A DNA stretch of 64,000 nt from the NCBI GenBank assembly GCA_964276515.1, contig OZ193909.1:11966001-12030000 (forward strand), in the 5' to 3' direction. Positions within the stretch are counted from its first letter, which is position 1; every line of letters starts with the position of its first letter. The stretch comes from Gordius albopunctatus (taxonomy: Eukaryota). Shown piece after piece: positions 1,871-40,317 of the stretch. The position numbers and the translations under genes are program-made. A model generated the notes under the pieces. The model made no database searches. It was not told the origin of the DNA and worked only from the letters and a program-made list of their open reading frames with translations.

Positions 1871-2288
1871 TAACAAGGATTTAATGGATTCCTCTCTTCT
1901 TTATTCATAAATAAAATTTATGAAATTAAAATTTTACCGATTAATTTGCAATTTATTGACGTTTGAAAAACGCCAAAATCGCTGTTTTCCAGCAACTTTG
2001 TCAGCAAATATTTCAAAAACTTTTCATATTAGAAAAAATTTAAAAAAAATATATTCGTGTTTACCGCGAAAAACTCTACCAAAATCTGCAAAGGTTTACC
2101 TGTTGCTTTTTCTTGTTCAACCGTGTTATTTTTCATTATTAATATTAAAGATGATTTATAATACGACGTAATTAGGATATGATGTAAACCATTTATCTAT
2201 CGCTAAGTACAAATCATTTTATGCTATAATGTTTTAAATTTCACATTCTTTTCCGTTTTCATTGATTTTTTTCTATATCTTTTTCAGT

Positions 2289-3137
2289 ATGGAAGAAATA
2301 GTTGTTATTGATCCATCCGATGAAATCACATTTCAGATAACCGATATCAAGCCAGTTGAACGTCCGCTAGTTATTTCAAATAGAATCAACAAATCTCTAC
2401 TATTTAAAATTACTTCCACAAGCCGAGATGTCATAAGGTGCTATCCTTCATCAGGGTTTATATTACCTAATAAAAAAGCAACAATAAATGTGACATACTT
2501 GCCCACCTCCTACAAAAATATAACCGATTATGGTGACAAAATTGTGATTACAATCAATGTTTGTAAAGATAATGAGGCGATTTCGGATGCAGATGAACAT
2601 TGGAAGGCCTTGGATCAATTGACGAGCAAAAAAACATACCAACAAAGTCTTAGAATAATTATACAGAATAGTGTATCCGTCGAACGATTAAGAGCTGCCG
2701 ATAAAGCACGTTATAATATGGCAAGTAGTGATGAAGATGCTATGGATTTTATAGAAGATTATGGCAAAGGTAGTTTCAATAAAAAATATTACGACCATTC
2801 CGCGTCGGACTCTATCTACGCTAAATTAGATAACACTCTGAGTGAAGATAATAATTTGAAAAATCAAATTTCAAAGGCTGAACAAGAACTTAAAAATGTT
2901 AAACATGATCGATCTAAACTGCATAAGGTGAATAGAGAAGCTGATAAAGCTAGATCGAGAATAGAGGCCGATTTAAAAGCAACTATTAAACGTGGCATGA
3001 GAGATCGGATGAAAACAATATACGCTATACAGATATTTTTTATGCTTTTCGCCATTGTCCTAATCAGTTATTGGTTCGAAGAGTTTTTAATGAGATACCT
3101 TGTCATAGATCCAACTGTTATGGCCAAAAAGCTTTAA
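2289..3137 (+). CDS. VAP-like protein (MSP domain, coiled coil, C-terminal TM), intronless, divergent
   Basis: First ATG at 2289 (the ORF track starts earlier, at a TTG). N-terminus VIDPSDEITF...ISNR...LLFKITSTS...YPSSGFILP matches the MSP fold. Heptad region LKNQISKAEQELKNVK. Hydrophobic tail IYAIQIFFMLFAIVLISYWF. AATAAA near 3215. Confidence 0.8.
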   Translation: MEEIVVIDPSDEITFQITDIKPVERPLVISNRINKSLLFKITSTSRDVIRCYPSSGFILPNKKATINVTYLPTSYKNITDYGDKIVITINVCKDNEAISDADEHWKALDQLTSKKTYQQSLRIIIQNSVSVERLRAADKARYNMASSDEDAMDFIEDYGKGSFNKKYYDHSASDSIYAKLDNTLSEDNNLKNQISKAEQELKNVKHDRSKLHKVNREADKARSRIEADLKATIKRGMRDRMKTIYAIQIFFMLFAIVLISYWFEEFLMRYLVIDPTVMAKKL

Positions 3138-3743: not shown

Positions 3744-4619
3744 TTATTCAAACCAAAACCACGATTTATCTCCGTTACCACATTCGGGTAAATTTGAGTT
3801 TGGGCATTTGTTGTAAAGCTCATCGTCGCTCGCAAAAAACTTTCCAGCGATATAGGATCCAAACAAATATCCAAGTAAAATTATAAAAAATGCCATGTTA
3901 ACAATGTTAGCGACGTGAGTGATTTTTATATGCTTTCGCAAGGTTTTAAGTTCTCGTTCATCCATACATGTTCTTTCAATTTCTCGTCGTAATAATTTCA
4001 TGTTGGCATTTTCCTGAGCCAACAGCCTGTATTCTTGGTTGAGCCAGAATATATCTTCTGAAACCTTACAGACATCATCTTTGTTAAATTCTGTCTTTTT
4101 TAAAAGCTGCTCTTGCTGTTTGCCACGGTTCGATGTTATTGATGACGATGAAGATTTATCCATGTCACGAGATGTAAACATCGGTGACAAGTTGTCAATA
4201 GGGCTACCATCTCTCACAATGTTATCAAGGATGACCGACTTTAATTTTGTGATGAAAACAGAATTTGACTCAGAATTTCCCACCATAATTTTTTTGTAAA
4301 AACTACTGTCGGTAGAGGGACCGTTGTTAGAAGAGCGAACTGCATTTATTACTATTTTTTCATTTGCATCATTTAAATGTTCTCCCCTAGCTTCGTTTAG
4401 TTTAAGGCTTATAATGATTTGAACGGATCCACTTGGTGTTATTATTCCACATTGGGGATGAATTTTATAAAGATGAGCGGCACCCTCCACATATATTTTA
4501 TAAATCACGTTATAATGGCTATTGTTTTTTAACACGAGTTTTTCTTTGGTTGTTCCTTGAATAAATGGACCGCGGAATATAAGATCTTTTTCCGGAATTA
4601 TGCTTAACAAGCCTTCCAT
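3744..4619 (-). CDS. VAP-like protein (MSP domain, coiled coil, TM, short Cys-containing tail), intronless, divergent
   Basis: LLSIIPEKDLIFRGPF...LVLKN...VIYKI...IHPQCGIITP resembles the VAP N-terminus. Coiled coil YRLLAQENANMKLLRRE. TM VANIVNMAFFIILLGYLFGSYIA. Confidence 0.85.
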   Translation of the reverse strand: MEGLLSIIPEKDLIFRGPFIQGTTKEKLVLKNNSHYNVIYKIYVEGAAHLYKIHPQCGIITPSGSVQIIISLKLNEARGEHLNDANEKIVINAVRSSNNGPSTDSSFYKKIMVGNSESNSVFITKLKSVILDNIVRDGSPIDNLSPMFTSRDMDKSSSSSITSNRGKQQEQLLKKTEFNKDDVCKVSEDIFWLNQEYRLLAQENANMKLLRREIERTCMDERELKTLRKHIKITHVANIVNMAFFIILLGYLFGSYIAGKFFASDDELYNKCPNSNLPECGNGDKSWFWFE

Positions 4620-5239
4620 TAAAATTTATATCTCATTTCTTATATGGTGACACTTAATAAGATCATTAGCTAATAACAAATAAATTTGATTGTTAAATAA
4701 CCTCAAATATTTCAATTGTTGTAATTATAAACATTAGAAATGGTAAAAATATATGAGAAGAAAGCGTTTAAATATATTTTAGTTTTAATCAATTTTAAAT
4801 CTTTGATATAAATAAATTATTTTAGGGACAAAATGATATTTTAAAAAACACGAGCATAAGCACAAATGGGGGCCTATAAAAATATTAGTTTTTTGACACA
4901 CTCTTTACTTCGTATATTATACAATTAGTTTATGAAAATAGGGGTCGGGGTTAGTCGGAGAGGGGCTGTTGCTAGCCATTTTTCATTGTCTTACAAATGA
5001 CAAGATTTAAAAACAAAATATTTTGTTTAATAATCTAACTTAGTGTTTTTTGGAATAGAAATAGACTAAAAATACATTATAAAACGACTAAAAGTTTTTT
5101 TCCGTTGCTAAATCCGTATATTAAGTGTTCTTAAGTCAGATTGTCATCTTGACCCTTTTTTATTTGTTTTATATAAAATAAAATCGGGAACCGGTCAAAG
5201 GCACACAGAAATAGCATCGAAATTCGTCATGATTGCTCA

Positions 5240-5690: not shown

Positions 5691-6361
5691 TATATACATG
5701 TGATATAATTACATGATGTTAGGCTTATGGTTTAAATTTCGCAGTTTGTTTACCTATTCGATCCCTAGATATAAAGTTAAGAAATTCCTGTATATGTGCC
5801 ATGTTGATTGGATTTATAAATATAATTCGTTTCGTATTTTAGCTTTAACCACAAAGTGTGCTCCTTTTTTTCCTGGTGAGCTATAGTCCGAAATTTATGA
5901 TAGAATTTGGATAGGCCGCGTTCGGGCTTATAAAAATAATAAATGATAGATTCGGCCCGCTCTATTTCAAATCTTTATGTATTCATTTGAAATTTTTTTT
6001 GTTGAATTTCAGATGTTAATTATAATCGCGTTAAAATTATACTTATCTAAATATTAAATTAGCCGACTCCAATTTCCAAAGGGTATGATTTGAGTGGACT
6101 ACGTCTATATATATCTATGATTAACACTTCTCAATTTGAAATGCGGGTTGAATTGATGAGTGAATGAATAAAGAAAAAAATATAATTTTATTTCCTTCGT
6201 TAGTTTAATAAATATTATATAATTTTAAATTAATTTAATACATCATAAAAACACACCTTTGTTTATAATTTATAATACACAAAAAATCTATATGATTTTG
6301 TAACGGGCTCAACGAGCATTTCTACTATCTATGCACGGCCCGAGCCCGCTAAGTTATACCT

Positions 6362-7164
6362 GTCCATTGGCCAAAATGATGAGCAAAAACAAATTCATCA
6401 CCTGTCCTAGTAAATACAGAGTCAGCCGTAATTGTTGCAGACGTAGAGATCTCCCGTACTCGAATGCACGGCTAAATCAATGGCATAATATTCGATCGGG
6501 TCTAGCTAAAGCGAGGTTATATCGCCACCGTCCAATTTTACACTGTGAATAGTGGAGAGCTTGCGTTGGGCCTCGTCGCCTGTCAAAATAAATAAGTTGG
6601 TTCATTTGGAATATAAATAAGCTGGGAGTATAATAGTTTCGCAATTTAAGTCTAAGATCATTCATTAAAGCTAACTAATGGCTAAATAGGCAAACTTGAA
6701 CCGTCGATGTCGCCTTGAGTAATGTAACCCGTATCCAAGACTATGAAGGTATCCCCATACACCGGATCTAAAATTATGCCACCAAATTCTTTGGGAGTCT
6801 CTAACTCTAACCCTTTATAATATTGAGGACCATAGGTGATTGATATAGTTTGTGCCAACAAATTGGATTGCCCATAATAATCAAATTCTACAATTTTGTA
6901 AGTTCTCGCATCTAAGGTGGGCACGATGGCATAAAAATTTCGAGCTGTAGGTTATCTTCCAGCATAACGAATATCCATTCGGGATTGGGCAATTGGTGAT
7001 TTGCGTTAAAGCCACAATACTTAACGCGCTGGTAACTGGTTAATTGATGCGAATGAGAATTCGTACTTAGATCCACGGGGTTTATGTAGCGAGATTCTGA
7101 TAGAAATCATATAATGTGCCTTAATTGCGAGAAGTCAAATGTTTAAAGTAAAAAGCAAACGCAT
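6362..7164 (-). pseudogene. disrupted intronless gene for a secreted YWTD/LRP-type beta-propeller-like protein
   Basis: ATG at 7164 gives MRLLFTLNI*LLAIKAHY (signal-peptide-like), in frame with ORF 6682-6924. Propeller-like repeats GGIILDPVYGDTFIVLDTGYITQGDIDGS and, after a frameshift, IHSVKLDGG...AIDLAVHSSTGDLYVCN. Many in-frame stops. Confidence 0.55.
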
Positions 7165-7377: not shown

Positions 7378-7722
7378 TCTTATATATAAAAATAAACTGT
7401 GTGTGTATATATGCCGCCACTAATTTTGGAAAACTACCAGACCGATTTGGCTCAAAATTTCACAGTTTATTCCATATTCCTTACACTCCGGGGCATGTTT
7501 TAAGATTTGTTTGAGCCAAATCGGTCCAGTAGTTTTCGAGTATTCGTATGCGTTGCACTGTATACGGAAATAGAACAATAGAAGTAGAACATATAGAAGA
7601 CATCAAACTTTATTTTTACTTCAATAACCGCTTTATCATCATATTCATATATGCCCTAAAATTCCAACATAATTTTATACACCCGGGTAAATGGCAAAAA
7701 AACGTTTGCCGGGTTCCTCTAG
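7378..7722 (+). mobile_element. non-autonomous Helitron
   Basis: Starts A|TCTTATATATAAAA and ends with a GC hairpin (CCCGGGTAAA...TTTGCCGGG) then CTAG|T, i.e. inserted in an AT dinucleotide with no TSD. Internal inverted repeat ACCGATTTGGCTCAAA / TTTGAGCCAAATCGGT. Short (TG)n near the 5' end. Confidence 0.75.
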
Positions 7723-8094
7723 TATATTTATATTAAAGACGCTCAAAGCAGATGAAATTTAAATTTTTGTGAGATTTGGTCGAGCAATAAGCGAAGATGC
7801 AATGATGACAATTAAATAATGTCAGGTAAATGTTATTTAAAAGAGCCCTTATAAAAATACTGTTATGAAAGTAGTACTGTTTATAGCTTAAAACATAAAA
7901 TGTTAAAAAATTTCAATAAACAAAGGTAGGGGAGACCGGGGTTAATTTAGCCATAAAAAATTAAATCACGTTCTAAAAAAACTAAAAATTATTTTTACAA
8001 TTTTTTGTTCAAATATATTTTTAAGGTCTTGCTATAGGAAAAAAATTTGATTGGACAGGGAAAAGAAGAGTGTTATCTATATATATAAAGTAAA

Positions 8095-8151
8095 GTCTAT
8101 AACACTACGAACGACGGTCCCAAGTCCGTGTGAAAAAAGTGGAGGGTTGGC
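8095..8151 (+). ncRNA. twister ribozyme (P1-type) at the RTE 5' junction; predicted cleavage between 8100 and 8101
   Basis: U|AA site. P2 CACT(8103-06)/AGTG(8138-41). T2 AC(8107-08)/GT(8124-25). P4 ACGG(8114-17)/CCGT(8126-29). Loop TCCCAA with T1 CCC/GGG(8144-46). Catalytic G8142. Collinear with the rice Osa-1-4 twister as recalled, with compensatory changes in T2 and P4. Confidence 0.85.
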
Positions 8152-11100
8152 GTCAGGTCGGAAACCGGCTGTAAAAAGCAACTCCAAACACCATGGCAGC
8201 TTCAAATACGAACTTATACCAGAATGCTAAGGCGTCCTCCCCAAACGACGCGCATTGCATCATCCGCCCGTGCAATGTGAAAAGAATACAAGGGTCACCG
8301 CCTCACTCACAGCGAAGGCGGTTAAGGAACCTAGTTGTCGAACGGACAAGAGTGGCTAGCTGGAATGTAGGCACGCTGACGGGGAAGAGCATCGAGGTTG
8401 CGCAGACGCTAAAAAGGCGAAGGATACACATAGCGTGTCTACAAGAAACACGGTGGCATGGAACAAAAGCCAGGGAGCTAGGAGATGGTTACAAGCTATA
8501 CTACTCGGGTTCCCCATCACGGAAGAACGGCGTCGGTATAGTGCTTAGCGATTCCTTTAAGGACAAGGTAGTCGAAGTCAAACGATGCTCGGATAGATTG
8601 ATGTGCATAAAATGTTATTTGTGCGTATTCGCCCCAGGTTGGATGTTCCGAAAACGAGAAGGACGAATTCTATGAGAAGCTCGAAGAAGAAATACGCTAC
8701 GTGAAGCCTGACGAGAATCTCATCATCGGAGCAGACTTTAATGGGCACGTTGGGAAAGAAAGGGGCGTGTACGAACGAAATCACGGCGGGCATGGCTATG
8801 GAGTGAAAAATAAAGAGGGAGAGAAGTTACTACAGATGGCGCAAGCTTACGATATGGCCATTGTGAATACCTTCTTTCAGAAGCGTACCGAACATTTAGC
8901 GACGTACAGTAGTGGAAATCACCTACATATTAGTGAAGCGCATAAATTTGTGGCAAGTTAAAGATTGCAAGGTTATACCGGGGGAAGAAATCGCCAAACA
9001 ACATCGGCCAGTTGTCCTCGATATAGCAAGAAAGATTTTTCCCGTAAGGAGAAAAGTCTACACACCAAGGACAAAGTACGAAAAGCTTAAGGATGATCAT
9101 GCAAATGAAATGTTTCACACTCGAGCAACTCCGCTCTTGAAGGTTGCAGGCTTGGAGGGCGACATTAACAAAAGGTGGGGCACCGTTGCAAATGTTCTAA
9201 AGGAAACGGCCTTACAAATATTAGGACGAACTAAGGGCGGCAGAGCTCACAAGCGTGAACTATGGTGGTGGAATGACTCGGTCAAAGAGGTTATAGAAGA
9301 AAAGAAGGCGTTGTACCTACGATGGTACAAAACGAAGAAAGGAGAAGACTACGAGGCATATCGTGAAGCGAAACGCAAAGCTAAGATAGCGGTCGCGATA
9401 GCGAAGAACGACGCTTACACCGAGATGGCAAACAAGCTCGATACCAAGGGCGGCGACATAGTCATGTATAAACTCGCAAAGATCAGGGAGAAAAAAAGTC
9501 GAGATGTCGGGACACTTAAAGTCATTAAAAGCGAAGAGGGACGAACGTTGTGCAAACCGAAGGAAATCATCAAAAGATGGAAAGATTATTTCCAAAATAT
9601 GATGAACAAAACGAATGATAGAAGACCGCTAGAGAGGGTGGAGCCGAACTCGAACTTGGTTTTACCATTTCAGGCTTATGAAATAGGAGCACAAATAACG
9701 AAGATGCGGAAAGGGAAAGCGCTAGGTCCCGATGATCTACCGATCGAAGCTTGGCTTGGGTGCAAAGGAGAAGGAATCGACAAAATGACAGGCCTATTTA
9801 ACGCTATGCTGTATGAGAGTCGTATCCCTGACCAATGGAGGGAAAGTACGATCATACCTATATACAAAGGTAAAGGAGACGCGCAGGAATGTGGCAACTT
9901 TAGAGGTATCAAGTTGACCTGCCACTCACTAAAACTACTAGAAAGGGTGCTAGTGAAAAGGCTCAATGACGAAGTTTCTCTCTCGCCCAATCAGTTTGGA
10001 TTTGTGGCCGGTAAATCAACGATGGACCCAATCTTTGCGTTGAAGCAGACGATGGAAAAATATGGCGACATAAGAAAGAAATTACACATGGTCTTCATCG
10101 ATTTAGAAAAGGCCTACGATACGGTTCCGAGAGACTTAATATGGTGGTCCCTTAGAGCCAGAAATATACCCGAAGGATATGTTCGACTTATCAAGGAAAT
10201 GTATAATGGCGCGGTTGCATCTGTTAGGAGTACCGTAGGAGTAACGAAACCCTTCCGAATAATGATCGGACTACATCAAGGATCAGCGTTAAGCCCATTC
10301 TTGTTTAATCTAATTATGGATACAATAACAAAGGACTTGCACAAGCCAGCCCCTTGGACTATGCTATATGCCGACGATATTGTCCTATGCGATGAAACAA
10401 GAGAAGGGGTTTTTCATCAGGCGAAAAAATGGTCAGAACGTTTCTCGGAATTCGGGTTAAAGGTCAGCGAGAAGAAAACGGTTTACATGCAAACGATGGG
10501 CGGTAGTCCGCAAATGCACAAAATTGACGGTCCAAGGTACACGGAGGTTGATAAGTTCACATATCTTGGCTCGCTATTACATCAAGAGGGAGGATGTACC
10601 GCCGAAGTCCAGTCTCGGATCAAGAAAGCATGGCTCAAGTGGCGCAGCATCTCCGGTGTCATGTGTGACAAAAAGATACCAATTTGGTTGAAAAGCAAGG
10701 CGTACAAAACCATCGTGCGACCGGTCTTGCTTTACGGGAGCGAAACATGGGCTGTAACCTGCGCGGAGGAGAAACTCTTGCAAGTCACGGAAATGAGAAT
10801 GGTGCGATGGAGCTTAGGCTACACCAAGCTGGATCGCATGACGAACGAATCCTTGATGACAAAGATGGGTATACAAGCGACGAAGGACTTCTTAAGAGAA
10901 AATCAACTGCGGTGGTACGGCCATGTATTACGAAGAGACGAAGACGATGTCACACGCCGAACGCTGGAGATGGACGTGCCTGGAAGAAGAGGAAGGGGCA
11001 GACCACGTGCCACCTGGAAACGACTGGTCGAAAAGGATATGGACGTCAAACAGATGGAAATTGGTATGGCATTCACACGACTCAGATGGAAGAGGCTGCT

Positions 11101-11154
11101 GAAAACGTACCCCACGTCTGTGGGATTTTCAACACGATAAAGAAGAAGAAGAAG
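8101..11154 (+). mobile_element. full-length RTE-clade non-LTR retrotransposon (young copy)
   Basis: Perfect 16-bp TSD ATAAAGTAAAGTCTAT at 8085-8100 and 11155-11170. (AAG)n tail directly after the stop. Single APE+RT reading frame. Sharp GC contrast with the flanks. Confidence 0.95.
8193..11140 (+). pseudogene. RTE ORF (apurinic-like endonuclease + reverse transcriptase) with two frameshifts in the endonuclease
   Basis: EN motifs SWNVGTL, IACLQETRW, GVGI, CAYSP, GADFNGHVG. RT motifs FRGIKL, QFGF, FIDLEKAYD, GLHQGSALSP, LYADD, YLG. C-terminal LRWYGHVLRR and GRRGRGRP. Frame breaks near 8610 and 8922. Confidence 0.92.
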
Positions 11155-11167
11155 ATAAAGTAAAGTC

Positions 11168-11455
11168 TATGTATGTATGTATGTATGTATGTATGTATGT
11201 ATGTATGTATGTATGTATGTATGTATGTATGTATGTATGTATGTATGTATGTATGTATGTATGTATGTATGTATGTATGTATGTATGTATGTATGTATGT
11301 ATGTATGTATGTATGTATGTATGTATGTATGTATGTATGTATGTATGTATGTATGTATGTATGTATGTATGTATGTATGTATGTATGTATGTATGTATGT
11401 ATGTATGTATGTATGTATGTATGTATGTATGTATGTATGTATGTATGTATGTATG

Positions 11456-11485
<30 letters not shown>
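11168..11485. repeat. perfect (TATG)n microsatellite, about 79 units
   Basis: Uninterrupted TATG array; it accounts for the spurious MYVC ORFs. Confidence 0.98.
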
Positions 11486-15883: not shown

Positions 15884-18800
15884 ATGAAAGCTGCTGGATT
15901 AATCATTCTATACCACCTATTGGTGCACATTAATATCATCGATTCTCAGCTAAATCATCTATCATCGCTATTAGAACGTCTCAAATATCAAGGTTAGATC
16001 TTGTTTTCATTATTTAAAAATTATGTACAAATTTTTCTGTGTGCTAAACCTCCTTTCAGGAGGACCTGCATTACAGTTGTATTTTTTAAAGGTTATCCCT
16101 AGTTAATCAGGCCTCGGGCTTGATGCTTCAAGCCAGCCCATGTAAAAAAAAATTTAGCTAAAAGATTTTTAAAAACTTTTTAATAATTACTTTGCTGAGT
16201 AAGCTATTTAGAGGAGACAAATATTTTAATGTTAAATGAAAGGTTCAGGTGGTGTTCTAAATATTCTTTTTTGCAAATTTGCAATTCAAAAGAGTCGGGC
16301 CTGGATCGAGTCGGGTTGAAGAAAAAAAATTCGGGTTCGGGCAAAATTAATAAAAAAGTGTTGGGACGAGCACGGGCCGAAAATTTCATTTTGTAGGCTC
16401 TATCCGCAGTGTATAATATAGAGACTAATTGAGTTTTCTAAGTCTGATCGTATACAAATTGGAGTAGTTTTATACAAATATTTACTACTAACAATTTGTT
16501 ATAATAAAATAAACATTTGCTTTCATGCTTTTGAGGAGGGTTATAACACCGCTATCGCGCCATTATTGATTGTGGCCCTTTTAAGATTGCCATCTATGAA
16601 ATTATCATAATGGAGACAATAGAATAGTTATTTTTTATGAAGAACAATATGTTATTTTTAGTAAAACTTCCTTTAAAAATTTGTATAATTAGGTAGTGCC
16701 CCTATTCATGTGACAACGTATCCAAATTACGACATCGAAGTTCTCGAAGGCAATTCCCAAATCTTTTCCTGCCAGACCGATGGCACAGATCCAGTGGTTC
16801 GTGCTTGGTCAAAAAATGGGCATCGTTTCAACCAAACTCTGACAAGTAAGTCACCAGACGATAACCAATTTTTTCGCTTGGAAGATATTACGATTAAAAA
16901 TGCGGGACAATATCAATGCCATGCCAGCAACGCATACGGATCAGCATTTAGTTTACCAGTGCCACTCAGGGTCTCATTTTTACACGAATTTGACGAGGCT
17001 CCTAAAGAAAATTCAGAGTTTGGAAAATTTGTTATTGGGGAATATGCAATACTCACATCCCCGTTTATTGAAGGTTCTTCCGGGAGTGAGTTTAAATGGA
17101 TCAAAGATGGCCGGCCCCTTACCATACCCCAACACGGGGACATTTATTACAACGAAAAATATACGCAAATCAATCTTAGAAATCACACTATTGTACCGCC
17201 TAAATCTCAATCTTTACTCATGATAAACGGTTTGGATTATGATGATGCAGGATTTTACAAGTGTTCTGCCATGAACTCTATGGTGGGAAAGGTTAGCGAA
17301 TCAAAACCCCAGCATCTCACTATTCATGGTATGTATAGCTTTAAATATTTGATTTCATTTTTCAAATTATTAATCCTTTTATTATGATGAGTATAAAATT
17401 ATTGCAAAATGTAGAATCGGAAGTCAGCGAAAAAGTTGGAAGTGTACCGCACCTCGCATTGAAATCATCAAATTTAACCATAATTCAAGGCATAAAACGA
17501 GCCTCTTTCTATTGTATACCCTATCCAAGGTATATTAAAATAATCGAAATTACTATTTTTATCTTAAATTTTACAGCTTAAAATCATATCGCATGAGTCA
17601 ATAAGATACTATTAAATGCTAATTACTTCCATATAATTTTAGTATCTGACTATTAAGATTTAAATTAAATTGTATGCACATTTTATATGTATTAGTTTTA
17701 TTAACTTTGCGATATTATGTTGTAAAAGCTGGATCGGCATTAAATGGTACCATCAAAATAATCTAATTGAACAAAATTCAACTCATTTTGAGATTTCCGA
17801 AAATGGGAATTATTTTTCCATAAATGGTCCGACTATTAAAGATTCTGGATTCATAACATGCAAAATGGAATTACGTGAATCTCATACCATATTTTTCGTC
17901 GTTTCGGGTAATTTATTTTTGAGATATTTTTCTAAAAAGCGCTCTAAATTTCCCCTGTAATGGTATTAATTTTATTATTTATTAAAAGCTTTTTTAGTTT
18001 GAAGGGTGTTTTTTTATTGTTTGCAAACACAATAAGCAATAGTTGTCATAATTATTTAATACATTTTTAAATCTCAATCCATTTTTCAGGTATAAATTTT
18101 CAATGTTTTAAATATAATTGACTTTTAGGCAGACTATAACTACGATGACAAATTAATTCATAAACGATAAGCATTAACACAGAAAAATTATTATTTTTAT
18201 CTCCAAATTGTTTACTAATATAATTTTTATCATACATATGTACTACATATTGTGTGTATAGAAAAACCAACATTAAGCAATACCGATTTTCAAGTTATTA
18301 AAAAGAATTATAATTCAAACTTCACTTTGGAATGTACTGCGTCTGGACATCCTGCACCAATCATTGAATGGTTCCATAATACAAAGCGGATCCCGGTGGA
18401 TAAGGTTAAATTTTCTTCTATCATACTTTATAAGCGTTTGCTTGTTTAATATAGTATTCCGGGGATAATTTATTTGCCATAAATTCCTTCAACTTTGAGG
18501 ACGATGGCATTTATCAATGCTTGGCTACCAACTTTGCTGGCAGTGTATTATTAACCTATTGGGTTAAAATGATAGGTAAATCTTATTAGTATTAAATGCT
18601 CTAACCACCGAACACTTTGATTTTATCAAGCTAAATATAATTATTCATAGAATATCCACCGATACTCATCAAAGGACTTTTTAATACAACTGTTCTCTAT
18701 GGCTCAAATATAACTTTAAATTGCAAGTTTGCCGCCTTCCCCCATTACAACATTTCTTGGACTAAAAACAGTATGTTAAACTTGTGAAATGTTATTTAAA

Positions 18801-21800
18801 ATATTTTATTATTAAAATACTGCTAGTAATGAAAAATCATGATTTAATGTCTGGATTCACATTGATTTCACCAATTAAATATTAAATAAAAGTAGGGGAC
18901 GCTAAATAATTTTTAATTCAACGCCAAGCCTATGTAACCTGGTGTCGCAAACAAGACTATCATATTCCAGTCATTAGCTAATAAGTCAAATGAAAGAGAT
19001 GAACTTTTACTTTAAATATAGAATTTACTTTATCTTCTCACGAAGATTTTTAATATTTTTGATATTGTTCTTCAACTAGATTATATTGATTTTGAATCAG
19101 AATTAGAAAATCAAATATTTCAACTTTATGTATTACCTAACATGATTAAATGTTTAAAAAATATGTTAATAGATATGCTGCTAGAACACAGTTCGAATTC
19201 ACTATTCATTGAAGCACCACAAAGTGGTCAAACAAAGATGGAGATATTTTGCAAAGCTTCTAACTACATAGGACAAAGCACATCTAGAGCTTTTATTCAT
19301 TTTATAAGTAATATTGTTTCGCAATTTGTTATTTCCCTTTTTAGATTAACAACTTATATCTCATAAGTTTCTTTTTATCGCGCAGCTTTATATTTATTTT
19401 AAAATATGACTAGATAGTTAGCATTTACATTAATTGATGGGCTCCTATAATCTAATAGTAAATACTAGAGATCTGCACGGGAGCCTGGAACATAGAGTAT
19501 GAACGGGCTTTGATAATAAAGAATGTAGCCGTAGGACTCAGGCGATCATAACAGTTATAAAAACTGGTTCGGACGGACATCTTTTAACGCTCCTGGAATT
19601 ATTAAATTTACCCCGGCCAAAAACGAACTATATTAAACAATTTTAGTTTAAATAGATTTTTAGTTTATTTACAAACAAAAATAATTTTCAATGACAAAAT
19701 TGATAATTGTAGTAAGTTTAACCTAAACAGATGGATTTATCAATAGAAATATATCCGTAGGCAAGCAACCCTGAGAAAATCTGACGATTTATTAATAGGG
19801 GCTCGAGCGGGCCTAAAATAAAAGATATTTATTATACCTATAAAGAACGACAAACTTTATATAAAAATCCATGTTTCACGAGCAGTTTGAATCAAACCTA
19901 GATTTATAATGTTTATATATAACAGAAAAAACCAGAATTAAACTGCCTCTGACCATTGGTAACACAACATATAATAATAACTCTATAAACGTTATCATCG
20001 GGCAGCGGGCTGATCTCCCGTGTAGAATAGACCATGATCCTTCCATTAACATAACCGTCACTTGGTACAAAGGTAATGTGATACTAGCGAAAAGCGAATA
20101 CTTGAATGGCAAAAAAAAATTAATTGTTGAAACGGCCAGCGAAAGGTACAGAATAAAAGATATCGGGGATCATGCTTCTTACATTCTTACATTCCCAAAT
20201 GCTAAGAATACCGACAAGGGTTTATATTCCTGTCAAGTTTCATCGACAGCCGGTGATGACATCATACAGTTATACCTACAAATAGTTGGTAAGGGATAAC
20301 CGTCGCATAACCATTGCTAAGATTGTAATCATGGAATATTTAAAACTTTTTTAATTATTGTTTAAAAACTTTTTAAATTCTTACTAAAATTAAAAAACAA
20401 TAATACAGCTATATTTAGTTCATTAAGAAAGCCACCCATCAAAGTATTATTATTAGTGTATTTGATTATTCTTAAGAATTATATTTATATACTTAAAGAA
20501 CTTCCCTATCCTCCGCTCAACTTAATTGCGAGCATTTATAAACCAGCTGAGCGCGCTCAAGTGTTGTTGCAATGGGTCCCAAATTTTAACGGCAATAGTC
20601 CAACCATCTTTCATACAGTGCAATACAAGGAAAAAAGTAATAAAAATTATAATCTATAAATAAATAATTCATACACCTTAAACATATAACTTTTGTTACT
20701 GTATTTTCATAGACTAAATAGACTTGTTTTTGTAGTACACCATAAATAATATCCTTATCTAGTTTTTCTTAAATTTATAATTCGTATTAAAACTTTAGTA
20801 CTAAAAAAGTTATAATGGTTTAAGAGTTCCTAAACATATTTTGCAAAAAAACTCATTCGACAACGCGATAATTTTTACACACGAATGGTTTTATTTATAT
20901 TAGATTTAATATGGAAATCCTACAATAACACCTTTTCGGGTGAAAAAAACACGGCTCTTTTATCTGGCTTGGAGTTTGGAACGATCTACACATTTAGGGT
21001 CCGGGCCATAAATGAAATTGGAGAAGGATCCTGGAGCTCTGAAAGCAATTCAATCCTTATCCCAATCATAGGTATTTCCATTATACATACCCATCGCATT
21101 ATTGAATTATTCAATAATAATTAATAATATACATATATAACTAGCTCCAACCTTTTCGCCAAATCATTTTCACTCCGAAACGCAATCCCCTTCATCCATC
21201 TTACTAACTTGGAAAGTGAGATAACCTATATATAAAATTGTGTCATCATTTAACTTTCGATTAAATGGGTTTATATCTCTTTATCTATAAACATTTCCAT
21301 TATTTTTATTCTGTTATATACTATTATTACGTGAGACGATGAAGTATATTCCTATAAATTAGAGACAGGAAATATGATTACTTTATAAAACCTCACAATT
21401 ATAATACTTAAATAAACACATTATAAAGTAAAGCTTAGCATATAAATTTGTTTAATAAATTCAAAGTACTTTTTTAGAAAAACAAGAATTGTAACTATAA
21501 AACTAATCATTAGGGTATATTAAATTTAGGTCCCCAAAAAGGAAGTATTATCTAGTCACATACTGGGTTACATAATAAAGTACCGATTAACTGGTCTCAA
21601 AAATCAAGATTGGAGCGAAATTAAAATTCCGGCACAATCAGGGAGTGCGGGTGTTCAAGAATATCTATTAGATAATTTGATCACTTGGAAACAATACACT
21701 ATAGCGATGGCTGTTTTTAACAAAGCTGGCTTCGGGCCATACACAGATTATGTCAACGTTTGGACTTTTCAAGGAGGTTTTTTATACTATTAAATTGATT

Positions 21801-24800
21801 TTCTATTGAGACAGGTTAATGAGTTATTTTTAGGCTAGTTCTGCTTGCAAGATCTAATATTTGCAATGCAATCTAATCCCTACTTTATAATTAATTTTGA
21901 TTTTTTGTGCCGACTCTACCTCAATGTTGGAATTTGACGCGTTTGTAAATTAAGTTTAAGCTTCAATCCTAAAACCAATTAAAGTTGTTACAATTTGGTC
22001 CCATGAAAGGTAACATTTTTATTAATAATAGCTGGCAATATAAAATCTTCCAGATTTATTAATATATTATTCAGCCTTCGGCTGTTTGCATAATCAATTC
22101 TAAACTCTTTTATCTAAATCCACTCCAACCTATACTTAAAGTCTGACTTTTCTCAAGTATTTGGTAAATTTATGCATTATACCTATCCTCTTTATAGTTC
22201 CCGAGATAGCTCCACAAGGTGTCACTGCCTCAGTGTTAAATTCCTCGGCCATAAGGGTATCATGGATCCCTCCAGATCCTCAATTGACGAATGGCATTGT
22301 ATCAGGATATCAAATAAGATACATTAATAACCCCAACAACAATTCGTTTGTCGGTGGAAACAACGTTCACACGTTTAAATTGGAATTAGATAGGCTAGAG
22401 TTTTCCAGAGTTGGACTATTCATCAGCAATTACAATATTTCTATAACAATCGCAAATTTAAAACCTTACACCCCCTACACATTCGATGTAAATTGTTTCA
22501 CCGAATCGGGCCAGGGTCCATTTAGTTCCCCGCCCATTCATGCCCAAACTTTGCAAGATGGTAAATATTTGATCTTAAATTATAAGCTTGAAATATATTG
22601 AGTGTCTAAACTTTACATGAAATGTTGTTGTTACTTGAAAGGCCAAATGTTTAAATAATCTCAAATAAAACACGCTATTAGATTTACTTATTAAAATGAT
22701 ATTTATTGAGCTATATTGATATAATTAATAGAAATATTTACTATAGTGATTGGCAAAAACATTAAATAGTCTTTTAATTCAGCATTCTATCCGATTTTAA
22801 TTATTCTATTTTACCAACATTCAGTGCCAACCGAAGTAAGGTCTATCTCCACGTTAAACTTTGTTGGGTCTAAAGCTCTTGTCAAATGGATAGCGCCAGT
22901 TACTTTTAACGGAGTTTTCAATGGTAGTTTTATTGGAAATATTTATCTATTATATGTTTAATAGGGTACAAAATTAGATACCGACCTTCAAATCTACCTA
23001 CGACTAATACAACCGAACTTTACTTGAATACTTCGGAAAATCATGTAACAATTCAAAATTTGCTATATTCCCAAAACTACGTTTTGGACATTTCAGCCCT
23101 ATCAGGGGCAGGAGAAGGTCCCGCAAAATCTATAAGTTTTACATCTGGTCAATTACCAAGTACAAAAGCTGCTAAAATGATAATGAAATTTTATAGTTAT
23201 TTAAAAATAAATTATAAAACTAGTAAAATAATGGTCATATTTTCGATTCTGAATTTAGCTTTACCTAGTCAACCCATTATCAAAAATGTGATACACAACG
23301 TCACTCAAGCTTTCATAAACATGGAAATAACGGATTTGGGAAGTGTTGAATTAAAAGCCATTATCATTGAGGCCCAAAAGGATAAGTATCGTTCAAATAT
23401 TGATGAAAAGATATGGGAGAAAATAGAGGAAAAAGATTATACTAATTCCTCTATCACATCACCTGCTTCGTTAACCATCGACGTTGGTCTTAAGTAAATA
23501 ATATAAATGTTCTGAATATTTTTACCATCGTGAAGAATATATTTTTATAAAATATAAAGGTTGTTAAAACAGTTATATTAATAATGCTTAATAAATTTTT
23601 TGGGGTTTTTAAAAATATATAATTTTATAAATTATAGCCAAAATTTACAGCAAATTAAAGTTCAAAATTTTGAAAATTAGAAATATACAGATATTGCATT
23701 AAATCCTTACTCTAGATCGCTTAATTAACTATAAATTGCGGAAAGTCGTTTTTTGAAAGATGCATAATTTTTAAATTTAATGTTTTTTAATATAGTAAAT
23801 TTTAATAACTTATGTGTGTTTAATTTAAATATATGAAATACATATTTATTCTTAGACCTTACCTTTATTATCGACTACGGTTTATACTGGTTAACGAAAT
23901 TGGCCAAAGTATTCCTAGCAATGCTACAAGTTTGTTTAAAACGGAAGCTTCAAATCCTTCAAATATTCCTGATACGATACACAGGCGGTGCTATCAGGAC
24001 AATTCATGTATAATAACATGGTCACCTTTAAATGAAGATAATTGGAATGGCATCCCAAAAGGCTATGAGATTCAACTAACCTCTCAATGGGACTACAAGT
24101 AGCTTCGTGTTATAAATTTAATTTGTCAATTTTTTTTATTTAATCTCCTACTTTTTAAATTTTTATAAATTACTTTTTTAGAAAGATAAGTCATATCGAT
24201 CCTTATAGAGGCTATTACCAATTTAAAAATTTAAAGCCCCTCTCAAATTATACTATAGTAATCCATACTATGAATCACAAATATTCTAGTCTAAATAATA
24301 CAAAAAGTTGGCTATTCACCTTACCTTCAAGTATTTGAACAATTATATTTAGCAAATTTATAACTTTCTAGAACCAACATCTTTTCCACAGAATTTAAGC
24401 ATGATCAATGTAACTTCTACGTCGGTGGAAGTAATGTTTGAGTGCAAACCAGGTTTGTACGAAATAGTAGATAAAGTTGAAGTACATTTTATTTTATTAT
24501 TGCTCGATATTTATTCAATTTTTAGACTCACGTCTATTCTTTCAAAGATAACATGTACATAAATCAGTCTTATGATTACATATGGAACTTAAATGAATCA
24601 TTATGTTTGCTGACAATCAAAGATTTAGTCCCATTTACGAGTTATCAAATAACCTTAAAGTTTCATAATGTGATGGGTGGAGGCCCGTTAAGCGGTGCTC
24701 TCGCATTTCAAACAGAATCAGATGGTAACGTTTTTTTATAATTATTTGGCTTTCCTATATAATTTTTAAAATTATATGGCATTTTTATTGTTACACTAGT

Positions 24801-27800
24801 TCCTGACCAGCCCATATTTAAAAAATTTGAATTTACTACTGCAAATAATGTGTTGATACATTGGATACCTCCAAATCATCCGAATGGAGACGTAATAAGT
24901 TACGATATTGATTACAAAGAAAAACGATCTAACGCTTGGGATTCATTAAGAATAACACAATTCGATGCCGACAGTCTTACACACGAAGTAAAATATTTTC
25001 CATCGATATATATATTTTTTTTGTAGATCGCTAATTTTTTACCTGATACTATGTATGAATTTGCCCTAAAAGCTAAAACTAAATCGGGATGGGGTAAACC
25101 ACAATTGGCCGATTTTTTTACAAGAAGCCTTAGATATGAAGGTACATTATAAACGTAAAGTTATTTGAAATTTTTTTTTTATTATAGACTTTCCGTTAAT
25201 CATAGTGAGCGATAAAAACAAATTAAAATATTTTAATGCTTGTCCTATTTCAAGATATGATCAAATAAATTATATATTTAGAAAATTTATAATTATCTGA
25301 TAATGTAATTGAAAGGGCTTAAAAATTTGTTATTATCGTGCTCTCTCATTTTCAAAAATTTATTAAATATTAATTAAGAAGGTCAAAATCTTTATGAAAA
25401 ATTACAGTGTATAAATTTAAGGTACTTTGGACTTGTCGAAAATCTATCTACAAAGTCAATTGATTCCGAATAAAAGTATGGCTATAAAAGTAATGTGGAA
25501 TATTGAGGGCGATGATCCTCATTTGCCATGGAGACACTTAGTTTTGCGCTACAAATTAAAACAAATTAATGAGAATGACGTTACTTTTGAACCTCTAAAA
25601 TCAATATACCTTAACCCGAACATTAAAGAATATATTTTATCGAAGTGAGTTTAAAGCATCATTTATATTTATTCCTAACTTTTGCAAAATCAATAAAATA
25701 AACTCATTTTTTATAACAGCGTGAAGCCAGCATCAATTTATTACTTCCAAATAAGGGCCATAAATGACATATATTTAACAAATTGGTTCGGTAACCGTGT
25801 TCATGATTACCTTGCCATTGAGACGACAAGCAGTAAACCAATAGGAATTCCTAAAATTATAAGTTACGATATCATATCAGAACGATCTATATCAATACGT
25901 TGGGAGGTAAATTGTAGTTTGAAATACTTCCAGAAAGATATCTATATTAATTAATATATGATAAGTATTAAACATTTTTATATAGTACAGATATTTGTAA
26001 AATTGCTATGTATTTTTTCAGTTGTTAATAATTGTAAAATCTTATATTTTGATACACCTTTAATAGGGGATAAAAAAATTGTCCTGGAATTCACCTAAAA
26101 TTGGATATGCTGTGTCTTACACCAAAATAACTACACATTACATGCTTACAAAATCCTTTGTGACCTATGTGACAACTAACAAAACGCATGATCTACCCAA
26201 AAAGAAAATAAATTTAAATGCCTCTGATATATTAAAAGGCTTGTCACAATTAACAATTTTTGGCGATGATTTTAAGGGCATATATAAAATTCACATTATT
26301 GCTTACAATGATGCTGGCCATCAAATATCAGAGCCTTTATTAGTCTACATCGGAGATTCATGTAACATGATTTATAAATTAATTTATTTTTAAAAATTGC
26401 CTCACATATCTTAATTAAGGTCCTCGGTAGTCTAATTAATAAAAATATTTTAGAATATGGGCCTGAGTCTCTTTTATTGCGTTTTACTATTGTGCAAATT
26501 TATTCTAAAAAGAGATTACTATATTTTCTCTATCTTTAATCTAATATTCAAATAATATTATATAATAATTTAAAGTTATTTAAATAATAATATGTAGTGC
26601 CAATAACATTTCCTACATTATTACCTGGAAATTCTACAAACTCAACATCATTATCCATTTGTGCTTCGTCGAAAGAACATTTTAATGTTGAAAAGAACGA
26701 GCCATTTGCGACATTTGTAATTAAAAATCTAATGACCTAAATTTTATATTACCTTTTTGTCCGTATATTATTAAATTTTAATATATTATGATAGGTTCGA
26801 TATCGATCTGCAAGCCCCAATTATTCAAACGCTTTAAATAAATATAGCCACCTAAATATTCCTTTCGCATTGCATAACGAACAGGATTGCCATCTTATTT
26901 CCCATCTAGAACCCTTCACGGAATACATATTCAACGGATTTTACTCAAACTTTGGTGGCAATGGATCAATATCTCCACCCCTTGTCATTAGGACTCTACA
27001 ATCAAGTGAAATGATTTCTATGCTAATTTATAAACAATAATAGAGGTTGACTTCCAAACACAATAGTATTCATTGTTTTTTAGCCTAACAAATAACTTTT
27101 TTGACCCATGCTGAGTTTTTTTTAAACTTATGTCGTTTTATATAATACTAAGGGGTTTTAAAGCTAATGAAACAAATATCTATTTCTTGAGTAGTAAGCT
27201 GTCTTCTTTTGTTATTTTGTATATATACCAAATTCAAATTTTAAATGTTGACTTCGTATTTTAGTACCAGGGCCCCCTGCACATTTAACTTTAAAAAATA
27301 TAACAATGGATAGTATGTTTATAACCTGGAACAACCCATCCAAGCCCAATGGTTTAATAGAGGGATATACGATTCAATACTACCCTTTGCTATTTCCAAG
27401 TAATATATAAAAAAATCACAACTTACATTTAAATATTAAAGGAAGTTCGCGATTTGTTACAGTGATATTTACAAATATATAGATGCTGACTGATAGTATG
27501 ATTTATTATTTCTAATATATAGGAGAGAAAATCAAGAAATCAACGATTGGCAACCAGACTAGCTTGTATATAACAGGGCTTAAACCTTATAAAACTTATA
27601 ATATCAACGTAGCTGCTAAAAATGAGTTTGGGATCGGTCCATTTATTTCAACAAATGCAACAACGGGTCCTCAGAAAGGTTTGGATATACATTAAATTTG
27701 AATTGTGTAATGTTCAATATAATACACATCAACTTGAATTATTAGGATCGCCATTAGAACCATATGATTTGACGGTTTCTCATGTTCCCGGGGACCTATT

Positions 27801-29910
27801 TCTGACGTTGCAATGGCAAAATTCAATAAATGATAATCATATTCAAGGTTATTATTTACAAAGCCTACGCGTAGATGACATTGGTCAAGAATGGATTAAT
27901 TCGGTAAGCTTATTGGGCTTTCTTGTATTTTGCGTTATGCAACTACTACCCTTAAACATTGGACGAAGTTTCAATGAATTTTATATTTCTTTAACTTTAT
28001 AATGCCATTTTGTATTCGTAGGCTGCGTTCCAAACTGAAAATGAAACATACGAATTGCCTTTAAAAAAACTTGTTACTTACTATAATTATACTTTTCGAT
28101 TACAAAGTTTTAATACAAATGGTGTAAGCAATTATTCTAAACCCTCTGAATGGATCGAAATATTCCCAGGTATACATTTTGATTAAAATTATTTTTAAAA
28201 TCATTTCTGTTTTCTTAGATATGCTGACACAATCAAATCGACCTTTAGTTGTCTACTATAATCAATGGTGGTTCTTGATAATAGTTGCTTTATCATCCAC
28301 AATTTTGATACTTATAATTATATCGTGGTTGTGCTGCAAGAGCCGAGATAAAAAATATAAAAGTAATATTCCTTAATCAAAAAATATATATTTGTATATA
28401 AATTTTAATAAAAACATAAGGATTAAAATTTATTAAACCTATAACGTATTAATTAAAATAAATGCATAAATAATTGAAGAGAAAATGGCGAGCGAGACAT
28501 TAGGAAATGGTGAAGTTGGCTCGAGTTCGATTTTACATTTAGCGAATCAAAGTGATAACGATACCATTAAAATTGAACATCTAACTCACGATAATACACC
28601 GGGATACCTGAATTCACAAAATTTGCTTAACCACAATTACATAGCAAATAGTTTATACCAAACCGAAGCTATTTTGAGATCTTCACGGCGTAATAGTAAA
28701 ATACGTGGCTCAACACGCGGAAGAAAATCTTCAATAAGACGACTTTCGCAACCCAAGTAAACACTCTTTCCATGCATTGTAAAACTCTAAAAACTTCTGA
28801 ATTAATGGAAAGTCTATTAAATTGTAATAAGGGGTTAAATTTTAGTTCCAAATAAAGATAAGTACTTCTTTGATTAAACTCTTAATTTTATCATATCTGT
28901 CATATATAGTTTTTGTTAAGATTGCGTAAATTAATGATTAATTTTTGATTGTAAGATTTCCCAACGGAAGTGATCTTTCAAGGGTCATTTATCCTGAAGA
29001 CAATGATAGTGAGGCCCAACAATCGACTCTTCCACACCTATTCTATCAAGAAACAATGCCCAAATACCAGAGCCCAGAAAAATTATCCATGAGTAGTTTT
29101 GATCCAAAAAATAACGAGAAAAATCGAAATAAAGTAGCCAATGCATTTTCAAATGATGCCTACACAACAAATTACAATAGCTCAAGTTCCATTTTATCGA
29201 TGTCGGAAAAACCTTTTGAAGCGCATTCTTTCGTTTTAGGTGGAGAAAGTTATCAAGTGAGACTTACCGATAATCGTTATTTGCTAGCGACTTTTTATTT
29301 GTTGGCCTACTCACTGATCTAATATAACTATAATTAAATAACGACAAAAAATAATTAATAACGGCTTACATTTTTTTCAATTCGATTGAGATTAAAGAAG
29401 TTCGCTATTATGGTGTGAGCTAGCATGACTTTTTTACTGTTATATATGCATAAATTCTTTTAGATTAAAAAGAGTCGAAACCATCAGATAAATGCTGAAA
29501 ATCAGTCATACGTAGACAGTGACCCTCAATCTTCGCTTGTTAGTCATTATACTGCCTCCTATCAAGACCGTCGCAAGAAACTCATGGGCACAAATCCCAA
29601 ACATTCAAAAGTAAAAAAAGGCGCAAAAGGTCCGCCACCGCCTAAACGTTCTGATGCTCTTCCCTCTATATCTACTAATTCCGTGTCCACATTTACTTCG
29701 CTGAATAAATCTAAACAATTTGTTAACAAGCATACATCTGCGTCCAACAACTATGCATTTCCATTAAACTCCTCTGAAAGTTATGTATTGCATGAAGGAC
29801 GTGCCTTGGATAATGTAGCTAACACTAAAAGGGAGGATCATGTTAATAAATTTGATATGATGACAGCTGGTACACGAGCACCGCTCCCTCCCTTAGGATC
29901 TTTCGTTTAA
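15884..29910 (+). CDS. sdk: Sidekick cell-adhesion molecule, multi-exon (about 35 exons)
   Basis: Signal exon 15884-15992 (MKAAGLIILYHLLVH) splices in phase to 16693. Six Ig-like domains (16.7-20.3 kb) and thirteen FN3 repeats (20.5-28.2 kb). TM YYNQWWFLIIVALSS matches the Sidekick juxtamembrane motif. C-terminus AGTRAPLPPLGSFV* matches the Sidekick PDZ-binding end. GT-AG introns. Confidence 0.92.
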
Positions 29911-39944: not shown

Positions 39945-40317
39945 TAATAATCTGAATACAATAATATACAGCATGTGATAAAATTACATTATTTCAATCA
40001 TTATGAAGGTGTTGAGTATTTAGGGACATTATTTTTGAAAAGAACTTTTTCAATGCCCTATAAATCCTATTGATATAAAAATTTAAGCCTATATTCTTAT
40101 CCTTTCTTTGTCCAAATACTACAACAAATATAAACATAAAGTTTTAAAACAATTTCTTTTAGATATTTTCACTCGAATCTTAACCTTAATTTTAAAGGCA
40201 AAACCGCAGTTCTATATTTTATGTTGTTGGAAGTATTCGCAGAAATTTATTTGCAAATTTTGACATCAAAAATTAATAATTGGCAAATTAATTAATAACA
40301 TAAGTAGATAGAAAATT

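Follow-up and report, generated by a model that had tools for sequence, protein, structure and literature searches.

A twister ribozyme core at the 5′ end of an RTE-like retrotransposon in the nematomorph Gordius albopunctatus

Introduction

Twister ribozymes are known at the 5′ end of an RTE-clade retrotransposon of Schistosoma mansoni, Perere-3, in which 113/113 full-length copies have a twister variant (Liu et al., 2021; PMC8501958), a precedent to which the first-pass annotation of the DNA described here had correctly referred. The Perere-3 TSDs adjoin an AA and form P1, and its twisters cleave in vitro after any base, including variants that cut after C, G or A, and also in a yeast reporter (PMC8501958). 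A 2020 review states in a single sentence, marked “in preparation,” that elements of the RTE superfamily have conserved, truncated twisters at their 5′ end (PMC7761336); there, this claim for the whole superfamily comes without data or a species list. A comparable release of promoterless elements from host co-transcripts is known for HDV-like ribozymes, which occupy the 5′ end of R2, Baggins and some RTEs, although their fold is unrelated to that of twister, and R2 is site-specific in rDNA (PMC6765202). Within the literature covered, outside which most subscription papers fall, we found no data paper on twister and retrotransposons or RTEs beyond Perere-3 and none that pairs Nematomorpha with a ribozyme; RTE is also unmentioned in the available part of a nematomorph genomics preprint (10.1101/2024.06.11.598342).

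We analyzed a stretch of 64,000 nt from Gordius albopunctatus (GCA_964276515.1, contig OZ193909.1, positions 11,966,001 to 12,030,000; hereafter the window), which contains two related insertions, copy 1 and copy 2. Copy 1 has the same 5′ design as Perere-3/SR3 (RTE clade; T-variant twisters), but belongs to a nematomorph, hence another phylum, and its cleavage is a prediction. The shared layout extends to the target: the TSD adjoins AA exactly in copy 1 and within 1–2 nt in copy 2, and targets vary. The two systems differ in that P3 is present in the Perere-3 examples of Table 1 and absent from copy 1, T2 is GC/GC in Perere-3 and AC/GU in copy 1, the tail is GTAA rather than GAA, and the distance from the T-variant to the AUG is about 112 or 147 nt, compared with 92 nt from the cut to the ATG in copy 1 (PMC8501958). 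The principle of a twister-headed RTE is already published; the G. albopunctatus element probably adds a new animal group.

Insertion boundaries and genomic setting of copy 1

8085–8100, + strand: left TSD, 16 bp, an exact repeat whose bases 8095–8099 form the 5′ strand of P1 and whose last base, 8100, is U(−1)
8101–11154, + strand: full-length RTE-like non-LTR retrotransposon (copy 1), 3,054 bp, 47% GC compared with 28–30% in the flanks
11155–11170, + strand: right TSD, continuing into the (TATG)79 microsatellite at 11168–11483

The two TSD copies are identical at 16/16 positions, the word is present twice in the whole window, and exact shared words of at least 16 nt occurred in 0/4,938 random pairs of host-DNA segments (300 and 100 nt). 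Beyond the TSD copies the bases are unlike (A8101 versus G11171), so that 8101 is the first base not derivable from the target. The claim that the TSD fixes the first base of the element at 8101 therefore holds as a bound, since microhomology could conceal a start before 8101. The (TATG)79 microsatellite starts within the right TSD and hence lies outside the element, as either target or later expansion; matches to mir-297 in the window were rejected as this microsatellite. The title of one paper reportedly connects RTEs with microsatellite birth.

Copy 1 sits between a minus-strand frame (6682–6951) and a plus-strand Ig/FN3 gene with its first recognizable exon at 16689, and no host transcription unit spanning copy 1 could be mapped. 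The Ig/FN3 gene (16689–29910, +) is a multi-exon, receptor-like gene for which a close homolog was not found and the first exon was not located. On the other side of copy 1, 6349–6951 (−) is a relatively GC-rich region whose short frames look coding but match no Pfam family; this region may be a broken gene or an exon. A 28-bp inverted repeat (93%) at 7429–7537, about 550 nt upstream of copy 1, is perhaps the remnant of a small DNA transposon. Farther upstream are two convergent, apparently intronless genes (2238–3137, +; 3744–4625, −), whose products look VAP-like, each having an MSP domain and a hydrophobic stretch at the C terminus. A neighboring GPCR has one match among 414 candidates, from Gordionus sp. 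(56%), so that this one gene by itself already pointed to a nematomorph as the likely host.

Coding region and classification

8193–11140, + strand: endonuclease and reverse transcriptase (RT) reading frame, with the first ATG 92 nt past the cut and two frameshifts
11141–11154, + strand: 3′ UTR, 14 nt of GAA trimer repeats, after the stop codon at 11138–11140

The reading frame encodes an endonuclease domain (PF03372) and an RT domain (PF00078), and its three frame pieces together cover single homologs that are about 1,000 aa long. Both frameshifts are in the endonuclease part (near 8600–8620 and near 8916), and as sequenced copy 1 cannot encode an intact protein. The best 120 of 1,875 homologs have 38–44% identity, and none of these 120 is labeled RTE. 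In a tree of 24 RT segments, built without a named RTE reference or outgroup, the copy 1 RT forms a long branch within no well-supported group (≤48% identity to any row), and the RTE label is therefore founded on anatomy. RTE elements are characterized by one ORF for an apurinic endonuclease and RT, a length of about 3.2–3.9 kb, TSDs, and a very short 3′ UTR with AT-rich tri- to pentamer repeats (PMC1291365). Copy 1 fits this anatomy, with its 3,054 bp being slightly below the lengths of the published examples. No RT relatives were confirmed in viral contigs.

The twister core

8095–8151, + strand: type-P1 twister without P3, predicted to be cut between 8100 and 8101 (covariance models and read-off pairs)
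8103–8106/8138–8141, + strand: twister P2, 4/4 Watson–Crick
8107–8108/8124–8125, + strand: twister T2 (AC/GU), 2/2 Watson–Crick
8114–8117/8126–8129, + strand: twister P4, 4/4 Watson–Crick
8119–8121/8144–8146, + strand: twister T1, 3/3 Watson–Crick
8095–8099/8147–8151, + strand: twister P1, 4/5 pairs (one U·U, one U·G), partly target-derived

The complete twister core that the first-pass annotation had read from 8101 onward is borne out by these helices. Rfam model RF03160 (twister-P1) matches 8096–8150 over all 68 model positions with an E-value of 3.2e-8 in 501 nt (4.1e-6 across the whole window), although its score of 42.9 bits lies below the gathering threshold of 67.2 bits, so that this check succeeded by E-value and fell short by score. 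A second covariance model was constructed from 12 equal-length P3-less twisters from elsewhere (12/18 candidates, none from the window), and scores 8101–8146 at 49.8 bits, with an E-value of 5.4e-13 under a rough calibration. Minimum-energy folding of the copy 1 head does not return the twister fold, which is expected because the fold is a double pseudoknot.

We took A7, G13, G30, G45, A46, and G48 as the mutation-sensitive core bases of Osa-1-4, a rice twister. Copy 1 retains five mutation-sensitive core bases as A8101, G8124, G8142, A8143, and G8145, and has A with a compensating U at the G13 position. G8142 corresponds to G45 of Osa-1-4, which we take to be the general base. Osa-1-4 has the same minimal architecture (type P1, no P3; PMC5113685), and 36/43 of its positions 7–49 are unchanged in copy 1; the seven substitutions comprise two compensatory pairs plus C15G, U18C, and A36G, and L2 is 2 nt longer. 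The compensatory changes proposed for T2 and P4 were confirmed as G13A/C31U and C20A/G35U (positions as in the header of the Kobori matrix), whereas the uncompensated changes, G50U among them, had not been listed. A further contrast is that P1 of copy 1 is partly built from target DNA. The twister identity of the copy 1 head and the placement of its 5′ end at the predicted cut site agree with the second insertion in the window, with the related families on other contigs, and with the Perere-3 precedent.

Expected ribozyme activity

8069–8076, + strand: host 8-mer, 23 nt upstream, perfectly complementary to 8099–8106, so that the cut site and the 5′ strand of P2 are predicted to be masked

Relative activities of Osa-1-4 mutants were taken from the supplement of PMC5113685 by counting columns in the PDF text, with the key value found in both of its rows; they describe separate single and double mutants, whereas copy 1 combines all changes at once. 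G13A alone scores 0.17 and G13A/C31U 0.89, and the T2 swap, which is the pair carried by copy 1, is thus a proven rescue. The P4 swap tells little, as C20A (0.86), G35U (0.90), and the double mutant (0.94) are all active. U18C (0.96) and A36G (1.03) score close to 1; C15G scores 0.54 by itself, 0.84 with A36G and 0.09 with C31U (PMC5113685). The counterpart of a G8142A mutation, G45A, kept a relative activity of 0.52 at the 2-h end point (PMC5113685), and G8142A would therefore be a weak inactivation control at end point.

Among natural twisters, about 94% are active (McKinley et al., PMC11662667); P1 is dispensable and flaws in it are without effect, mean cleavage is 0.85 for twisters without auxiliary stems, and upstream P0 stem-loops are inhibitory (0.40 versus 0.85 cleaved) (PMC11662667). 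The complementarity of the host 8-mer at 8069–8076 to the copy 1 head is probably due to chance. The minimum-energy fold of 8060–8175 has −23.1 kcal/mol compared with −11.5 kcal/mol for the nested twister helices, pseudoknots being excluded from the calculation, and a transcript of 8070–8170 would include most of the masking 8-bp hairpin (8069–8076/8099–8106).

A second insertion in the window

40302–40318, + strand: left TSD of copy 2, 17 bp with 1 mismatch, its last base homologous to A8102
40317–40361, + strand: decayed twister remnant heading copy 2, with P2 4/4, P4 3/4, and T1 2/3 pairs kept
40319–43177, + strand: copy 2, a full-length but decayed relative, whose alignment with copy 1 has 2,715 columns and 66% identity
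43178–43194, + strand: right TSD of copy 2, 17 bp with 1 mismatch

Copy 2, which is absent from the first-pass annotation, lies in a target unrelated to that of copy 1 and has its junction 1–2 nt inside the twister core; both copies in the window (2/2) carry a twister or its remnant. In the remnant, the homolog of G8142 is A and one T2 base is lost. The Rfam scan does not detect the remnant, the model from outside twisters ranks it second of 12 matches in the window (13.2 bits, E-value 0.099), and comparison with the first 46 nt of copy 1 gives an E-value of 8e-6. The 0A/1A variants of Perere-3 likewise start 1–2 nt off, but without TSDs (PMC8501958).

Twister-headed relatives on other contigs

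Loci with the twister core pattern were drawn from viral (11), metagenome (at least 121), and prokaryote-genome (at least 120) contigs; long flanks were obtained for 80 metagenome and 80 prokaryote-genome loci. RTE-like ORFs were sought with a profile based on no more than 40 full-length homologs. Among the 252 loci listed, an RTE-like ORF lies downstream in the sense orientation at 16, upstream at one, and antisense at none. For the loosely parsed metagenome twisters listed with at least 600 nt, an RTE ORF was found downstream in 9/34 compared with upstream in 1/45, and 25/34 have no downstream RTE ORF. Rfam twister-P1 matches all of the 11 related loci (11/11), every one under the gathering threshold (37–65.8 bits); the Rfam gathering cut-off thus overlooks such RTE-linked twisters.

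Clustering by downstream sequence gave 10 families, four of which have independent flanks (34 members) and were used further; in three of these four, at least one member has an RTE ORF. We kept the 21 members that have 32 nt of flank and pair perfectly in P2 and T2, the AA not being required by the parse; the 13 dropped members include imperfect or 5′-truncated copies, and the junction result is one for intact heads only. In 67 pairs from these 21 loci of four families, identity is 13–26/67 per position at the 12 positions before the AA and 67/67 at both As. A TSD ends exactly at the cut in three elements, one full (L072, 13 bp) and two short (L097 and L118). Across eight long loci, the TSD ends cleanly at the cut in one and is ambiguous by one base in another (L040), and none was found in the other six, whose contigs mostly end early.

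The short elements (L118, about 210–385, −, 175 nt; L097, about 230–379, −, 150 nt; lengths including the right TSD) are non-coding and start at the twister AA. L118 looks like a twister-headed SINE-like element, with the TTG tail of the full element L040. None of the viral-contig twister loci (0/11) has an RTE ORF; three of them (L003, L007, and L011) hold complete type-P1 twister cores, with two matches 363 nt apart in L011. Among the prokaryote-genome loci listed (at least 120), three have an RTE-like ORF, all on short contigs (L157, L211, and L231), and the combination of twister and RTE-like ORF in these three is probably eukaryotic contamination. The other pattern loci on prokaryote contigs would mostly be chance or bacterial matches.

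Base preceding the cut

Among 20 independent flanks, T precedes the cut in eight, C in seven, G in three, and A in two (flank T, 36%), and the P1 strand pairs at 2.2 of 5 positions compared with 2.1 in controls. We therefore rejected the idea that choice of insertion site rebuilds P1 or supplies the U. Of 115,328 host positions, 3.1% would be expected to offer a good P1 together with U, and the presence of this combination in copy 1 is an accident of roughly that frequency. The earlier description of the boundary as a cut between U and A consequently stands for the AA start, whereas the U is incidental, as is the 5′ strand of P1, both being supplied by the target; the meaningful coincidence is the start at AA, given that the relatives prefer neither U nor P1 pairing.

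Hairpin downstream of the twister

8152–8177, + strand: hairpin followed by GTAAAAA, with stem 8152–8158/8164–8169 and a bulged A8155, common to other RTE-linked twisters

A hairpin with a GTAAAA-like motif lies just past the twister in nine further loci (L027, L037, L040, L084, L231, L043, L062, L066, and L157), in two spacing types and with some compensatory changes. Downstream sequence of family F2 (L055, L072, and relatives) is unlike this hairpin type. Pairs were counted in 11 rows of one spacing subtype, chosen by eye from 21; in these rows, which are related and from which the structure was itself chosen, and with the copy 1 row one column off, the six hairpin pairs are 90.5% paired compared with 21–52% when slid. 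Two of the pairs change on both sides, and 7/500 shuffles of the 11 rows match the covariation score; the percent-paired measure is matched by 36/500. RNAalifold found no structure in all 21 mixed downstream regions, because the two spacing types misalign. Conservation of the 3′ hairpin in RTE-linked twisters is thus suggested by the sequences. Identification with the published P0 was rejected, as P0 lies upstream of the twister.

The RT of copy 1 is less than 50% identical to that of any relative. It is possible, though we would not lean toward it, that the twister core, independent of the target, and the bulged-A 3′ hairpin with GTAAAA constitute an ancient 5′ module common to the RTEs of distant hosts. 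The hairpin might then replace P1 or recruit ribosomes to an uncapped RNA, and the copy 1 family would keep a minimal form that lacks P3 and has a swapped T2.

Mechanism and alternatives

Very probably, copy 1 represents an RTE-like element whose first 46 bases match a twister core, whose boundary lies at the predicted cut, and whose RNA, before being copied, is released from a host-driven transcript through self-cleavage. Host transcription would run through the element; P2, P4, T1, and T2 would fold, and the RNA would be cut 5′ of A8101 regardless of the upstream sequence, P1 being dispensable. By analogy with Perere-3, translation of the uncapped RNA may start at the ATG, which lies about 90 nt downstream. 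The endonuclease and RT would insert the copy by target-primed reverse transcription, as established for the class, and the new copy would start at the AA right after the TSD, which is the start displayed by the sequence. Every further target would in turn contribute its own, random base ahead of the cut and its own 5′ strand of P1.

That the twister match or the TSD arose by chance is effectively refuted: the Rfam score under the gathering threshold and the failure of minimum-energy folding to return the fold point that way, but two models give E-values of 3e-8 and 5e-13, no random pair reached the 16-mer, and the layout is repeated in copy 2. An improbable alternative is that the 5′ end is set otherwise, by an internal promoter at the AA or by RT stopping at the structured head, with the twister kept mainly for translation or packaging. 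The start of copy 2 within the core would agree with this, as would reporters of Perere-3 in which the ribozyme also promoted translation (PMC8501958). However, families with unlike downstream sequence share their breakpoint at one pair of bases, the site of chemical cleavage, copy 1 retains the bases of the catalytic core, and the Perere-3 twisters cleave there in vitro and in the yeast reporter (PMC8501958).

Compatible with release by self-cleavage is another reading, which we regard as somewhat unlikely, namely that the family uses its twister while copy 1 itself is dead in place, with a masked cut site, a weakening core change, and a frameshifted protein. The predicted 8-bp hairpin, with its lower energy, the reduced cleavage of natural twisters with P0 (PMC11662667), the lowered activity of Osa-1-4 with C15G, and the two frameshifts would fit this reading. 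Against it, the core pairs are all intact, the energy model leaves out both pseudoknots, C15G is accompanied in copy 1 by A36G, a combination that retains most activity in Osa-1-4, and twisters without auxiliary stems are on average largely cleaved (PMC11662667).

Significance

Within the literature covered, the link between twister and RTE has so far been documented with data in one flatworm only. The nematomorph case, together with several unrelated metagenome families, suggests that release by twister is a general promoterless way of life for RTEs, and that use by RTEs is a main reason why twisters abound in eukaryote genomes.
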